This document shows, in pieces, positions 24,936-29,993 of a DNA stretch of 64,000 nucleotides (its first letter is position 1; each line of letters opens with the position of its first letter). The stretch is taken from assembly GCA_041658985.1 (NCBI GenBank), contig JBAZZC010000001.1:65813-129812 (forward strand), read 5' to 3'. The notes under the pieces were generated by a model that was given only the letters and a program-made list of their open reading frames with translations, was not told where the DNA came from and made no database searches. The translations under genes and the position numbers were made by a program. This stretch comes from Minisyncoccota bacterium. Its GTDB lineage: Bacteria > Patescibacteriota > Minisyncoccia > Phycocordibacterales > DATDWN01.

Positions 24936-27047
24936 ATGACCAACAAAATATACACGACTGATTTCGGTGGCAGAGAATTAAAAGTTGAATTTAGTGACCT
25001 GGTAGACCAAGCGCATGGTTCGTGTCTTGTTCAATATGGAGATACTGTTGTTTTAGCAACTGCAGTCATGTCTAAAAAAGCCAAAGATGGAACTGATTTT
25101 TTTCCTTTGACTGTTGATTTTGAAGAAAAATTTTACGCTACCGGAAAAATTTTAGGCTCACGTTTTCAAAAAAGAGAGGGACGACCAACGGACGACGCTA
25201 TTTTATCTGGAAGAATAGTAGATAGAACAATAAGACCACTCTTTGATAATTGGATTCGTAATGAAATTCAAGTTGTCGTAACGGTACTTTCTATCGGTGA
25301 GGATGACCCTGATATTTTGGCTGTACTAGCCGCTTCTGTGGCCTTAGGCACTTCTCACATTCCGTGGAATGGGCCTGTTGGGGCTATAAGAATAGGCAAA
25401 AATGGTGAATTTATTGTAAACCCAACATACACGCAGAGAAATACAGAGAGCTATCAGATGGACCTTTTGGTTTGTATAAAAGATGACAAGGTCAATATGA
25501 TTGAAATTGGAAGTTCCGAAGTTCCAGAGGAAGAAATTTTGAAAGCCATGGACTTAGCAAAAACAGAATTAGCTAAATTGCAAAAATTCCAGGAAAAAAT
25601 ATTTGCTGAACTCGGAAAAGAAAAAGTAAAAATACCAAAACCAGAAGTTTCAAAAGAGACGTTTGCCCTGTTTAAAGAAAAAGTACAACCAGTTTTTATG
25701 GAAAGAGTTTTCTCTGGCAATCCAGGTAAGGAAGACCTCTCTTACCTAGCAACACTCTGGGCTGAGGAAGCTAAAGTAATAGAAAATGAGAACGAATACG
25801 GTTTAGCCATGGATTATTTGCAAGAAAAAATTGACTTAGCTATTCATGAAGAAATAATAAAAAACAAAAAGAGACCAGATAACAGAAAGATGGATGAGCT
25901 CCGACCACTTCTGGCAAAAGTTGGAGGTATTTCAAAAATATTACATGGCACAGGAATTTTTTATAGAGGAGGAACACACGTCTTGTCTGTTTTGACACTT
26001 GGCGCTCCGGGAGACGCACAGCTTATAGACAACATGGAGCCACAGGAAAGCCACAAAAGATTTATGCTTCACTACAACTTCCCTCCATATTCCGTAGGTG
26101 AGGTGGGAAGAATGGGTGGAACCAACCGCCGAATGATTGGCCATGGTGCTTTAGCAGAAAAAGCCCTTTTGCCTGTTCTACCAAACAAAGAAACTTTTCC
26201 TTACACAATTCGCCTGGTGGCAGAATCAATGGCCTCAAACGGCTCTACATCAATGGCTTCTGTCTGTGCTGGATGTTTGGCTTTGATGGATGGTGGCGTG
26301 CCTATCGCTCGTCCTGTTGCTGGAATCGCTTCTGGACTTATGATGTTAGACGAAAAAAACTATGTTGTCTTAACCGACATCCAAGGACCAGAAGACCACC
26401 ATGGAGACATGGATTTCAAGGTGGCTGGGACAGAAATTGGTGTTACAGCTGTCCAAATGGATGTTAAGGTTGCTGGAATTCCAATTCATATTCTCAAAGA
26501 CGCTTTTGAGAAAGCAAAATCAGCTAGATTACAAATCTTGAAAGTCATGACAGACACAATCGCAACTCCTCGAGAGAAAATTTCAGAATACGCGCCACAC
26601 ATTGTTTCAATAAAAGTAAAACAAGACCAGATAGGACTTGTTATCGGAACGGGGGGTAAAACAATTAAAGAAATAAAAGAAAAAACCGGAGTTGACGCAA
26701 TTGATATAGATGATGATGGAACTGTATTTATTACAGGCAAGGGAGATACCTGCGAACAAGCCAAAAAAATTATTGAAGAAATGACGCACGAGTTTCTAGT
26801 GGGAGACAGAGCTCGCGCCGAAGTTGTAAAAATCGCCGAGTTCGGCGCATTTGTTCGTTTGGCTGGAAGTAACACGGAGGGTTTAGTTCACATTTCAGAA
26901 ATCGTTCCACGAAGACTTCAGTCGGCTAGTGAAGTTATGAAAGTTGGTGATATTGTTCCAGTTGTCATAAAAGAAATTGACGAACGTGGACGGCTGAAAC
27001 TTTCAATTAAAGATATTGCCCCTCAGTGGTTTGATGAAAAGAAATAA
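24936..27047 (+). CDS. pnp: polyribonucleotide nucleotidyltransferase (PNPase)
   Basis: two RNase PH domains (FFPLTVDFEEKFYATGKI..., GGTNRRMIGHGALAEKAL), KH (IGLVIGTGGKTIKEIKE) and S1 domains. Confidence 0.95.
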   Translation: MTNKIYTTDFGGRELKVEFSDLVDQAHGSCLVQYGDTVVLATAVMSKKAKDGTDFFPLTVDFEEKFYATGKILGSRFQKREGRPTDDAILSGRIVDRTIRPLFDNWIRNEIQVVVTVLSIGEDDPDILAVLAASVALGTSHIPWNGPVGAIRIGKNGEFIVNPTYTQRNTESYQMDLLVCIKDDKVNMIEIGSSEVPEEEILKAMDLAKTELAKLQKFQEKIFAELGKEKVKIPKPEVSKETFALFKEKVQPVFMERVFSGNPGKEDLSYLATLWAEEAKVIENENEYGLAMDYLQEKIDLAIHEEIIKNKKRPDNRKMDELRPLLAKVGGISKILHGTGIFYRGGTHVLSVLTLGAPGDAQLIDNMEPQESHKRFMLHYNFPPYSVGEVGRMGGTNRRMIGHGALAEKALLPVLPNKETFPYTIRLVAESMASNGSTSMASVCAGCLALMDGGVPIARPVAGIASGLMMLDEKNYVVLTDIQGPEDHHGDMDFKVAGTEIGVTAVQMDVKVAGIPIHILKDAFEKAKSARLQILKVMTDTIATPREKISEYAPHIVSIKVKQDQIGLVIGTGGKTIKEIKEKTGVDAIDIDDDGTVFITGKGDTCEQAKKIIEEMTHEFLVGDRARAEVVKIAEFGAFVRLAGSNTEGLVHISEIVPRRLQSASEVMKVGDIVPVVIKEIDERGRLKLSIKDIAPQWFDEKK

Positions 27048-27048
27048 T

Positions 27049-27288
27049 ATGAATTATGTTACATCAATTTTTAGCATCCTAGCAATTATTATCTCTATTT
27101 TAGCTTGGCGAAAAAACCGTGCAGTTTATGAAATAGTCTCTAAAGATGATAAATTTGGTTATGAAAAAATCAATGAATTATTAAAGACAGGTAAATACAC
27201 AATCTTACATATCAAAGAGGACCCCTTAAACCATATGAGATTAATATATATTTTGGGTAAAATTCAAAAAGGGTCTTGGTTAGAATAA
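27049..27288 (+). CDS. small membrane protein (80 aa), hypothetical
   Basis: one TM helix SIFSILAIIISILAW; start chosen at ATG after pnp stop. Confidence 0.3.
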   Translation: MNYVTSIFSILAIIISILAWRKNRAVYEIVSKDDKFGYEKINELLKTGKYTILHIKEDPLNHMRLIYILGKIQKGSWLE

Positions 27289-27297
27289 GATTATTTC

Positions 27298-27330
27298 ATG
27301 GCTGTTTCAAAAATTTACAGTGCACAGATG
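27298..27330 (+). repeat. 33-bp duplicate of comM 5' end (30/33 identical to 27906-27938)
   Basis: atggctgtttcaaaaatttacagtgcacagatg vs atggctgtttcaaaaatctacagcgcacagaca. Confidence 0.8.
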
Positions 27331-27458
27331 ATACCTCTTAACGCATAAATTAGTTAACGTTTCGTTTGCTTGACTTTTTAAGACTACTTACTGTACAATA
27401 TTAGAGATTATGGGCTTCGGCCTCTGAGAAACCGTGTCGCAAGGCGCGGTTTCGTCGT

Positions 27459-27857
27459 TTACAAAACCCCTTTGACCATATTTGAAACTTTATCTGAAAG
27501 TAGGTTGTAATCCTTTTCATTAACAGTACCAATTTTTCTAAATAATCTTTTTGAACTTATGGAGCGAATTTGAGACAGGCAGGTATTATATGATTTTTCG
27601 TCCTCACCTGATACAAGAAAATAATACTTATTATTTTTATCTTGATTGGTTGTTGGCACAACCAGTGCCATATTTTTGTTAAATTTTCTTATAACAACAG
27701 CTGGTCTGAGAAAAAGTTCGTGTTTACCATCTATTTCAACTCCAACATTTACACCTGTAATACACCACCAGACCTCTCTCTCATAAAAAATAATTGGTTC
27801 TTCTTTTTTATCTGTCTGTTTTTTCTCCTCATTCCAGCTATTAAAATCTTTTTCCAT
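27459..27857 (-). CDS. MazF/PemK-like endoribonuclease toxin (orphan, N-terminally extended)
   Basis: REVWWCITGVNVGVEIDGKHELFLRPAVVIRKF...ALVVPTT resembles PemK/MazF fold signature; no antitoxin ORF upstream. Confidence 0.55.
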   Translation of the reverse strand: MEKDFNSWNEEKKQTDKKEEPIIFYEREVWWCITGVNVGVEIDGKHELFLRPAVVIRKFNKNMALVVPTTNQDKNNKYYFLVSGEDEKSYNTCLSQIRSISSKRLFRKIGTVNEKDYNLLSDKVSNMVKGVL

Positions 27858-27905
27858 ATTTATATTGTACTATAAAAGTTTTTGGTGTGGTAGAATTATT
27901 TTATT

Positions 27906-29489
27906 ATGGCTGTTTCAAAAATCTACAGCGCACAGACAACGCATCTTACTGCACAAATTATTGATATTGAGGTTGATTTGTCCAAGGGACTTCACTCGTT
28001 TTCTATCGTTGGTCTAGGAGACAAGTCAATTGAGGAATCAAAAGACAGGGTTGGGGCAGCGATAAAAAATTCTGGTTTCAAATCACCAAAAAATAAAAAT
28101 CAAAAAATTGTAGTATCACTCGCTCCGGCGGACATAAAGAAAGAGGGTCCGCTTTTTGATTTACCGATTGCTATTGCATATCTTCTGGCCTCGGAAGACA
28201 TAAAAGCAGATACAAAAAATAGAATCTTTGTTGGAGAGCTGTCTTTAGATGGCGAACTTAGGCCAATAAAAGGCGCTCTACCTATTACCCAAAAAGCCAA
28301 GAAAGAAGGCTTCAAAGAGATATTTTTGCCAAAAGAGAACGCCGAGGAAGCTGTAAATATAGAAGGTATTACTGTTTATGGCGCAGGGAGTTTGTTAGAG
28401 GTTTTGCAACACATAAATACAAAACGGTCCGCCTCATCGGCGGATGAACTTGGGGATACTGGAATAATTCACAAAGAGATCCCCAAGTTCAAAAAAATAA
28501 AGAAAAAGAAAATCGCACGAGAAATTGATATTGATTTTGCTGATATAAAAGGTCAAGAGTCGGCAAAAAGGGGATTAGAAATCGCTGCGGCCGGTGGACA
28601 TAATATAATAATGTATGGACCTCCGGGGACAGGCAAAACAATGCTCGCAAAAGCATTTACACATTTACTTCCACAACTTTCGTTTGATGACATGTTAGAA
28701 GTTACTTCTATTTATTCTATTGGTGGAATGTTGTCAGAGGGTTTGATAGAACATCCACCTTTTCGCTCACCACACCACACCGCCTCTTATGTCTCTCTCG
28801 TCGGTGGTGGAAGTAATTTAAAACCCGGAGAAGTCACGCTCGCACATAAGGGAGTGTTATTCATGGATGAGTTTCCTGAGTTTGATAAAAAGGTTTTGGA
28901 AAGTTTACGTCAACCTTTGGAAGATAGGGTGGTAACTATTTCTCGTGCAAAGGGAAGCGCAAGATACCCAGCACATTTTATTTTAATTGCCACAATGAAC
29001 CCGTGTCCATGTGGAAATTATGGAGTGAAAGGTAAGGAGTGTATTTGTTCTGCACAGAATATAGAAAAATATAAAAGAAAAATGTCTGGACCGATTGTAG
29101 ACAGAATAGATATGTGGGTAGAAGTTTCAAAAGTTGAACACGAAAAATTAACTGATAGCAGGGAAATGCACGAGGGAACAAATGTTATGAAGCCTCGTGT
29201 AGAAAGGGCCAGAAAAATAGCGGAGCAAAGATATAAAAAGCTAGGACTCAAAACAAAAACAAATGCCGAGCTCTCTCCAAAAGATTTAGTCAAACACATT
29301 GTCTTGTCGGATAAAGTGAAAGAAGTTTTGAATAAATCAGCAAAACAATTAGACCTCTCCGCCCGTTCATATCACAGAATAATAAAACTAGCCCGCACAA
29401 TTGCGGACTTGGGTGGTTCAGAGAATATTTCCGAAAATCATATTATGGAAGCGATTAACTACCGTCCCAAAAAATATCAAAATATATAA
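27906..29489 (+). CDS. comM: YifB/ComM-family Mg-chelatase-like AAA+ ATPase
   Basis: Lon-like N-domain, Walker A GPPGTGKT, Walker B LFMDEF, C-terminal Mg-chelatase domain; contains in-frame palindrome at 28425-28444. Confidence 0.9.
   Translation: MAVSKIYSAQTTHLTAQIIDIEVDLSKGLHSFSIVGLGDKSIEESKDRVGAAIKNSGFKSPKNKNQKIVVSLAPADIKKEGPLFDLPIAIAYLLASEDIKADTKNRIFVGELSLDGELRPIKGALPITQKAKKEGFKEIFLPKENAEEAVNIEGITVYGAGSLLEVLQHINTKRSASSADELGDTGIIHKEIPKFKKIKKKKIAREIDIDFADIKGQESAKRGLEIAAAGGHNIIMYGPPGTGKTMLAKAFTHLLPQLSFDDMLEVTSIYSIGGMLSEGLIEHPPFRSPHHTASYVSLVGGGSNLKPGEVTLAHKGVLFMDEFPEFDKKVLESLRQPLEDRVVTISRAKGSARYPAHFILIATMNPCPCGNYGVKGKECICSAQNIEKYKRKMSGPIVDRIDMWVEVSKVEHEKLTDSREMHEGTNVMKPRVERARKIAEQRYKKLGLKTKTNAELSPKDLVKHIVLSDKVKEVLNKSAKQLDLSARSYHRIIKLARTIADLGGSENISENHIMEAINYRPKKYQNI
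28425..28444. repeat. in-frame short GC palindrome (family 1) within comM
   Basis: ggtccgcc-tcatc-ggcggat encoding RSASSADE. Confidence 0.7.
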
Positions 29490-29546: not shown

Positions 29547-29903
29547 ATGGTGACTCAGATTTCACTCCATGGTTTCTGGCCACTGAGTTTTGCTATCGCA
29601 ACACTCAGTGCAATCGGCACCCTCTATGGAATTTGGGGGTTGTCGATGTGGTGGAGGGGGAAGGTATCATTCATCGTCGCGGCCGCCAGCACTGGTTTGG
29701 TTTGCTACAACATCAACCCAATCACCCTGAAGCTGTACTCGCAAGCGCAGGCAGAGCTGGGGACATTCTGGCTGTGGGTCCTGTATGCCACCAGCATTGC
29801 CCTCTGGGCAACCAGTGTCCTGACAGTTCTCATCTTGAGAATGTTCGTCATCGACATGTGGGGCGACTGGCGCCGATACCGAGCGCGCCGGCAATCCGCC
29901 TAA
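29547..29903 (+). CDS. small integral membrane protein (3-4 TM), GC-rich island F
   Basis: hydrophobic helices FWPLSFAIATLSAIGTLYGIWGL, VSFIVAAASTGLVCY, FWLWVLYATSIALWATSVLTVLIL; strongly G+C-rich third positions. Confidence 0.55.
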   Translation: MVTQISLHGFWPLSFAIATLSAIGTLYGIWGLSMWWRGKVSFIVAAASTGLVCYNINPITLKLYSQAQAELGTFWLWVLYATSIALWATSVLTVLILRMFVIDMWGDWRRYRARRQSA

Positions 29904-29993
29904 ACTCACGCCCCCGCGTGGCCAAAGAGCCATCGGGGCTTTTTGGTTAAAAATTTTTATTTGGTTTGACACGTATGGTATAATACGCACAAT

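Follow-up and report, generated by a model that had tools for sequence, protein, structure and literature searches.

A MazF-Family Gene and a Convergent Small RNA Gene Make Up a Candidate Mobile Toxin-Antitoxin Module Inserted at comM in a Minisyncoccota Bacterium

What holds a MazF-like toxin in check where no protein antitoxin lies beside it? To our knowledge, MazF proteins are textbook type II toxins and have always been described with a protein antitoxin. The question is raised by a 64,000-nucleotide (nt) stretch of Minisyncoccota DNA (GenBank assembly GCA_041658985.1, contig JBAZZC010000001.1, positions 65,813 to 129,812, forward strand; hereafter the window, to which all positions refer unless a numbered locus, L003 to L059, is named). 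A sequence-only reading of the window had described an orphan MazF/PemK-like gene on the minus strand, flanked by a duplication of the 5' end of comM and without a recognizable antitoxin open reading frame (ORF). Here, we report that two genes, packed into the region from 27353 to 27887, form a module inserted at the 5' end of comM and that the toxin gene is not solitary, because a conserved, promoter-driven small RNA gene faces it. We give an even chance to the reading that mazF and this RNA together form a small mobile toxin-antitoxin module in which the RNA is the antitoxin.

The toxin gene, mazF (27459 to 27857, minus strand), encodes a 132-amino-acid (aa) protein of the MazF/PemK endoribonuclease family, an assignment already made in the sequence-only reading and on which Pfam, profile and structure searches agree. 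Pfam PemK_toxin (PF02452) matched residues 29 to 125 (E value, 1.4e-10; 41.8 bits against a cutoff of 23.1), and a profile of 39 family members, run against PDB sequences, found MazF-mt1, Escherichia coli MazF and EndoA (E value, ~3e-4). The AlphaFold model (predicted local distance difference test [pLDDT], 84) was compared with the PDB using Foldseek, and its top 50 matches were all MazF, MoxT or YdcE (probability, 1.0; template modeling [TM] score, 0.6 to 0.7); the predicted fold is the SH3-like barrel of MazF, Kid and CcdB. Against the NCBIfam MazF equivalog, the protein scored 23 bits, below the cutoff of 120, and therefore it is no orthologue of E. coli MazF. R51 never varies among the 39 family members, P52 and T70 are each kept in at least 90% of them, and these residues align with the HRPAVV and CTTQ motifs; R51/P52 match R29 of E. 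coli MazF and T70 matches T52, which we take to be the catalytic Arg and Thr. Growth inhibition and sequence-specific endoribonuclease activity would be expected of a member of this family.

The N-terminal extension that the sequence-only reading gave to this one protein is present (about 25 aa, with a helix at residues 5 to 16) but proved to be a trait of the whole family, since of 296 homologues nearly all have a length of about 132 aa and can be aligned from residue 1. Among 1.84 billion cluster representatives, a profile search returned 286 at E values of ≤1e-30 and 1,853 at ≤1e-10, likewise aligned from residue 1, and all named family members came from Paceibacterota, Pacebacteria, Parcubacteria, Azambacteria or Sungbacteria. 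The helix and an invariant β1-β2 loop (G35, N37, G39, E41, G44) distinguish the family from canonical MazF. Read from the sequence, a likely −10 box (TACAAT; 27864 to 27869, minus strand) precedes the mazF ATG by 6 nt, and the mazF mRNA would then be leaderless. In other loci, the ATG is likewise preceded, at 6 to 9 nt, by TAGAAT or TACAAT.

The second gene of the module lies on the plus strand. A promoter scan found TTGACT, an 18-nt spacer and TACAAT (27370 to 27399; 10 of 12 matches), from which an RNA of about 55 nt (27406 to 27461) would run towards mazF and end on its stop codon. This RNA would consist of a 5' tail, GAUUAU (27406 to 27411); hairpin 1, GGGC-UUCG-GCCU, closed as cUUCGg (27412 to 27423) and followed by the linker CUGA; hairpin 2, the putative terminator (27428 to 27453); and a U-rich tail overlapping the mazF stop codon (27459 to 27461). 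The sequence-only reading had suggested that the antitoxin might be a small RNA and had pointed to the interval from 27330 to 27460, and a conserved small RNA gene in that interval fits the suggestion, with antitoxin function the probable part of it. Our covariance model (R1) scored the window RNA at 67 bits (E value, 6e-18) as its sole match in the window, whereas Rfam gave no relevant match from 27000 to 28000 at E values up to 10 and, at the gathering score, tRNAs only in the whole window.

Across loci, on the strand opposite mazF, the consensus of the element is a TTGACA-type −35, a spacer of 16 to 18 nt and a TATAAT-type −10, followed after 5 to 7 nt by GAUUAUGGGCUUCGGCCUCYGAGA and then by a GC-rich hairpin that differs in sequence between loci; its 3' end, UCGUUGUUU, finishes on or beside the mazF stop codon. 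All 29 distinct module loci have a promoter of the form TTGACN, 16 to 18 nt, TAnnnT at the same distance, with position +1 falling on the first conserved base. As a separate observation, DnaA-box-like motifs (TTATCCACA, at most one mismatch) occur within 72 nt upstream of the −35 of the RNA in 8 of the 29 modules (L025, L027, L028, L036, L037, L038, L041 and L042), against about 0.9 expected; such a motif also lies upstream of mazF in four loci (L003, L005, L016 and L025), and the window copy has none.

RNAalifold predicted two hairpins in the small RNA. In 25 distinct RNA sequences, 97.5% of pair cells were standard pairs, and the terminator stem showed compensatory changes in six of nine pairs, with a covariation score of 0.40 against 0.115 in shuffles (0 of 500 reached 0.40) and ≤0.087 when the partners were slid. 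Hairpin 1 is invariant within the main family, where covariation is uninformative, and in a distant member (L056), it reads UGCC-ACUA-GGCA and is compensated. The RNA strand is indicated in three ways: non-Watson-Crick cells were G-U or U-U and never A-C, the UUCG and GCAA (GNRA) tetraloops read correctly solely on the anti-mazF strand, and the fold energy in the window was −24.2 kcal/mol (z score, −3.6) against −14.6 on the opposite strand, with the same direction in L005 and L008.

The element appears to matter as nucleic acid. Of 275 family proteins, 21 lacked the normal stop codon, distant cluster representatives among them, and continued into the element, which is read in each of the three frames (SEAEAHN, RRPKPI, GGRSP); therefore it is conserved at the nucleotide level and not as a protein. 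A peptide gene within the RNA was rejected, as the ORF from its AUG (MGFGL...) varies from 5 to 37 aa, is unconserved, and loses its AUG in L057. The RNA was also considered as a mimic or pairing partner of rRNA, tRNA or other available sequence, but the matches were chance 10- to 11-mers in coding regions plus copies of the module, and no par-style pairing between the 5' end of the RNA and the 5' end of mazF was seen by eye.

The linkage of RNA and toxin gene was approached from both sides. Starting from the protein, 8 of 8 distinct family proteins with fetched contigs had the element immediately downstream, facing the gene; five scored 67 to 77 bits with the covariance model, and three scored 36, 49 and 15 bits at 55%, 49% and 47% protein identity, where the RNA differed by an insertion, a changed 5' tail and a compensated hairpin 1, respectively. 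Starting from the RNA, an exact 20-base core pattern was searched in 185,579 species genomes, a metagenome collection and viral contigs, and matched 10 stretches in the species genomes, 27 in the metagenomes and none in the viral contigs. Three matches (L019/L050 and L047) were set aside as chance occurrences inside GC-rich coding regions, and the remainder collapsed to about 29 distinct loci of candidate phyla radiation (CPR) bacteria, 21 of which have a full-length convergent mazF, down to 41 to 46% identity to the window protein. Five others have a truncated or frameshifted mazF, mazF is missing from one (L023), and contig ends truncate the remaining loci. In L023, the small RNA and its promoter (2762 to 2816) lie downstream of efp and a small hydrophobic ORF converges instead of mazF; in L017, the corresponding position downstream of efp is occupied by an intact module. 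The L023 RNA may be an orphaned antitoxin. Two loci carry extra copies: L025 (2572 to 3580) has two tandem mazF-RNA modules, the first divergent and the second with an N-terminally truncated mazF, and L056 (2154 to 2400) has two RNA-like elements downstream of one mazF.

No protein took the place of the antitoxin. As the sequence-only reading had held, the ORF list gave no protein antitoxin in the window cassette, and none is conserved beside the gene elsewhere: when every ORF of 30 aa or more lying up to about 1 kb from the module was clustered over 30 loci, no ORF outside the mazF footprint was common to more than three, the wide clusters being mazF itself or frames that overlap mazF or the RNA. 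A 77-aa antisense frame (27642 to 27875) was rejected as a codon-aligned reverse frame and an apparent effect of scarce Leu/Ser codons, and a RelB/DinJ-like assignment for the ORF upstream of mazF in L011 was unsupported by Pfam. PADLOC defense models gave nothing meaningful.

We propose that the strongly promoted 55-nt RNA would act as the antitoxin of this MazF-family endoribonuclease. Most likely, its 5' tail, cUUCGg hairpin and linker would make contact with the MazF protein, and the RNA would serve as an inhibitor or pseudo-substrate; such type III-like action is suggested by the conserved 5' region of the RNA, and about two thirds of the credit we give to an RNA antitoxin goes to such direct binding. 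In a possible second, type I-like layer, the RNA would pair antisense with the 3' part of the mazF transcript, where transcription must have continued across the RNA gene. The module would behave as a small selfish or stabilizing cassette in Paceibacterota and related CPR bacteria. Toxicity, neutralization by the RNA, the mode of neutralization and the way of movement are all proposed here as probable rather than observed.

The second layer could also be the whole of it, with the RNA pairing with read-through mazF mRNA at its 3' end, or transcription of the two genes colliding, and the protein left untouched; degradation of the mRNA or reduced mazF expression would follow. The geometry suits such pure cis-antisense control: the genes converge, the 3' end of the RNA (about RNA positions 50 to 56) overlaps the mazF stop codon or 3' region in nearly every locus, and in some loci, the whole RNA gene lies within the mazF ORF, which gives full complementarity there. 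Furthermore, the hairpin as read on the mazF strand has no U-run after it, so that read-through is likely. Yet antisense pairing is preserved automatically, whatever the sequence, and it leaves unexplained why the first 24 nt of the RNA stay constant while the promoter spacer and terminator stem drift. Among the protein-first loci, the RNA core is unaltered until protein identity falls to about 62%. The toxins of known type I systems are small hydrophobic peptides, and we consider this alternative unlikely.

Comparison with described systems places the module between types. In convergent type I pairs (Bacillus subtilis txpA/RatA and bsrG/SR4; Enterococcus par Fst/RNA II), the 3' ends overlap or a terminator is shared, and the module resembles them in the antisense overlap with the toxin gene, with a short and strongly promoted RNA; however, the toxins of these Firmicutes are small hydrophobic membrane peptides, where ours is predicted to be a 132-aa soluble RNase, and antisense pairing does not account for the conserved 5' part of our RNA. 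Type III systems (ToxIN, CptIN, TenpIN) join an endoribonuclease toxin to a structured RNA, ToxN is structurally related to the Kid/MazF fold, and the conserved RNA sequence here likewise suggests direct recognition by the protein. Their antitoxins are tandem repeats of about 34 to 36 nt, upstream of the toxin on the same strand with a terminator between, and are cut out by the toxin, whereas this RNA, a single copy with a promoter of its own, is encoded downstream on the strand opposite the toxin; a repeat search of the region found no tandem repeats, and the toxin is MazF by Pfam, not ToxN or AbiQ, with no Rfam match for the RNA. With the type II systems MazEF, PemIK and Kis-Kid, the module shares the PF02452 family, the fold, equivalents of the catalytic Arg and Thr, and the nature of a small accessory module at variable loci; it differs in having no MazE/PemI-type or other conserved protein partner, in a monocistronic and apparently leaderless mazF, in the extra N-terminal helix and in a convergent small RNA as the sole conserved partner. 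A full-text literature search returned no description of a mazF-small RNA module. The nearest account is of aMEF, an RNA antisense to the E. coli mazF locus that is reported to modulate a full MazE-MazF pair by stimulating its expression and to be transcribed from a promoter of poor conservation (PMC8749433); the present module shares the antisense position and differs in having no MazE and in the strong conservation of both promoter and RNA. The toxin family and the idea of an RNA antitoxin are known, and the combination of mazF with a convergent RNA, and its architecture, are new.

It is also conceivable that the pair is no toxin-antitoxin system at all, and that the MazF-like protein processes or binds a regulatory RNA that acts elsewhere or that the RNA serves some separate purpose. 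The very strong conservation of the 5' part of the RNA, the presence of the RNA alone in L023, and the helix and loop that separate the family from canonical MazF would all agree with this. Patchy distribution, varied contexts, frequent pseudogenes, the empty site described below and the location of some copies on conjugative-like elements nonetheless fit an accessory selfish module better. A search of the available sequence turned up no conserved complementary target, and we judge this reading quite unlikely.

How did the module come to lie at comM? The sequence-only reading had seen a 33-bp duplication of the comM 5' end around it. The repeat is real, although its measures needed correction: the two 33-mers compared (27298 to 27330 and 27906 to 27938) are identical at 29 positions rather than 30, with no site of at least 26/33 elsewhere in the window, and the repeat is about 75 nt long rather than 33. 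A repeat search gave 63 nt at 79% identity (27290 to 27352 against 27898 to 27960), and a gapped alignment, 60 of 77 identical columns (27277 to 27352 against 27888 to 27960), with a local-alignment score of 67 against about 21 in shuffles (z score, ~22). The left copy (27277 to 27352, plus strand) is decayed, with a −10 TAGAAT (27281 to 27286) and comM codons 1 to 18, and is now a dead stub ORF of 16 codons (27298 to 27348). The right copy (27888 to 27960, plus strand) is functional and carries an extended −10, TGgTAGAAT (27888 to 27896), and codons 1 to 18 of the intact comM (27906 to 29489, plus strand), at the 5' end of which the cassette lies. This gene encodes a 527-aa ComM/YifB Mg-chelatase-like AAA ATPase (TIGR00368, E value, 2e-169; Pfam ChlI, Mg_chelatase and Mg_chelatase_C; homologues 89 to 92% identical and of equal length).

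The window genome is close to Zambryskibacteria (comM 89 to 92% identical), and one relative (L055, 3974 to 4001; comM 89% identical) has the pnp stop codon, 26 nt and the comM ATG. Because L055 joins pnp to comM with neither cassette nor duplication, the cassette is an insertion, in keeping with the earlier suggestion of insertion at the start of comM with target duplication. The sequence-only reading would have been contradicted by a duplication in relatives without the cassette, and none was seen in L051, L054 or L055 (best scores, 21 to 25, against 67 to 68 for the window). In L051 (1395 to 4001), the pnp-comM interval holds three genes (Pur_ac_phosph_N, a sigma-70 family gene and DUF5667), and L054 (1188 to 2673) has other genes upstream of comM (DUF5678 and Asp_protease_2); the interval appears to be a local hot spot of gene gain among close relatives. 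The GC content of the inserted segment is 0.28 to 0.33 against 0.37 to 0.45 in the flanks, with a GC-richer intergenic stretch between the left comM copy and mazF.

Elsewhere, the neighbors of the module differ at almost every locus: it follows a DNA polymerase III subunit-like AAA+ gene, ftsX, 5S rRNA or bPH_2, or precedes rpsT. Gene-end duplications recur at a few sites: the module is flanked by about 36 nt of the 5S rRNA gene 3' end in L006 and also in L040, and in L027 by 24 nt from the 5' end of its neighboring gene (MGAPKYAGL...). Flanking repeats as a universal trait were rejected, being present in only 3 to 4 of about 23 loci with enough flank, as was tRNA adjacency as a general target, which holds for some loci only; no tRNA or transfer-messenger RNA (tmRNA) lies near the window cassette. 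Two guesses may be offered for the duplications, namely, homology-facilitated illegitimate recombination after DNA uptake and a single crossover of a circular intermediate. Separately, in L011 (3570 to 3672 and 3705 to 3894), the tRNA-Lys gene beside the module is preceded by a partial copy of its 5' end, 26 nt long and present twice without a difference, and an 18-nt copy of its 3' end lies 172 nt downstream, which we read as signs of repeated integration at tRNA-Lys. In L006 (1 to 2716), LAGLIDADG homing-endonuclease ORFs lie inside an Azambacteria 23S rRNA gene, just upstream of the module-bearing 5S.

Alternatively, the cassette may be the remnant of a larger integrative element, the comM repeats being its attL and attR and the module its stability system. 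Direct repeats of a gene end do flank the insert, and related modules have PrgI-family, relaxase or DUF87 genes as neighbors: L041, whose module is the closest to that of the window (78% protein identity), has a PrgI-family gene beside it, and the L056 module lies among relaxase, DUF87 and RadC genes. In other bacteria, comM is a known integration hot spot. AbaR-type islands of Acinetobacter, which are large and transposon-borne and disrupt comM with short target duplications, are likewise foreign DNA at comM flanked by a duplication, but here the insert is 0.5 kb, the duplication about 75 nt, and comM and its promoter are intact. As in site-specific integrative elements, there are flanking direct repeats and an empty site; unlike in them, there is no integrase or recombinase gene. 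No integrase remnant was found either, the two genes account for all 535 bp between the repeats, and minimal inserts elsewhere have duplications of differing length (24 to 75 nt) and sequence, which argues against one site-specific recombinase. We regard a remnant as distinctly improbable; it would in any case concern only how the module arrived and is compatible with RNA-antitoxin function.

A solitary MazF, with the downstream element a 3' untranslated region, bidirectional terminator or DNA site rather than an RNA gene, is very improbable: hairpin 2 could terminate both genes and the constancy of hairpin 1 in the main family means that covariation cannot prove it, but a near-consensus promoter stands on the opposite strand at a fixed distance in 29 of 29 loci, and the G-U pairs, fold energies and tetraloops favor the anti-mazF strand.

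Several points weigh against an RNA antitoxin and a mobile module. We know of no type III system with a single-copy, convergent RNA and of no type I toxin that is a MazF. It is the conservation of the promoter that points to transcription of the small RNA. The terminator scan did not flag hairpin 2 in the window, where the U-tail is weak. The invariance of the core in the RNA-first set is partly circular, as an exact core was required; independent support for the core comes down to the eight protein-first loci and the read-through peptides, and the 5' tail varies in the most distant members (L011, the first copy in L025, and L056). Loci with a damaged toxin and an intact RNA are a biased sample, having been found through the RNA, and the L023 RNA, without mazF, could have a role of its own. 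As to movement, mazF and the RNA gene are the only genes between the repeats, with no integrase, transposase or recombinase gene among them, and mobility is suggested by context, most loci having no flanking repeat.

Around the module, the window has further features. Upstream, pnp (polynucleotide phosphorylase; 24936 to 27047, plus strand) is separated from the cassette by a 79-aa orphan ORF (27049 to 27288, plus strand), which is not part of the module. This ORF has a single homologue (60% identity) among 5.8 billion proteins, in an unrelated context (L059); its GC content is 0.28 against 0.37 to 0.45 in the flanks, and it is missing in the empty-site relative L055. Between mazF and comM, −10-like hexamers stand 6 to 9 nt before each ATG without a Shine-Dalgarno sequence (27864 to 27869, minus strand, for mazF; 27888 to 27896, plus strand, for comM), which suggests that both mRNAs are leaderless and transcribed back to back from a 48-nt interval. 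Downstream, a GC-rich island (29547 to 29950; 0.52 to 0.58, with about 0.38 in the surrounding sequence) separates the comM stop codon from a TrmB-like gene and contains a membrane-like ORF of 118 aa without a Pfam match. It looks like a second small insertion beside comM, because in L051 only 33 nt separate comM from the TrmB-like gene.

Taken at its widest, the proposal is that a large class of MazF proteins in Paceibacterota and other CPR bacteria is neutralized not by MazE but by the direct binding of a single-copy, convergent 55-nt RNA, and that each pair is a selfish cassette of about 0.6 kb which duplicates 24 to 75 nt at gene ends without a recombinase; we put this forward tentatively, as possible and somewhat less than probable. 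CPR bacteria cannot be grown alone, and their RNA biology is almost unknown. If the small RNA is the only conserved partner of a large MazF subfamily, systems of type I, II and III become harder to tell apart. If the reading is true, the RNA would be among very few candidate regulatory RNAs in CPR bacteria, and the pair would be a simple two-part system testable in E. coli. The recurring duplication of gene ends around a recombinase-free insert of 0.6 kb is a separate puzzle on how DNA moves in reduced genomes.

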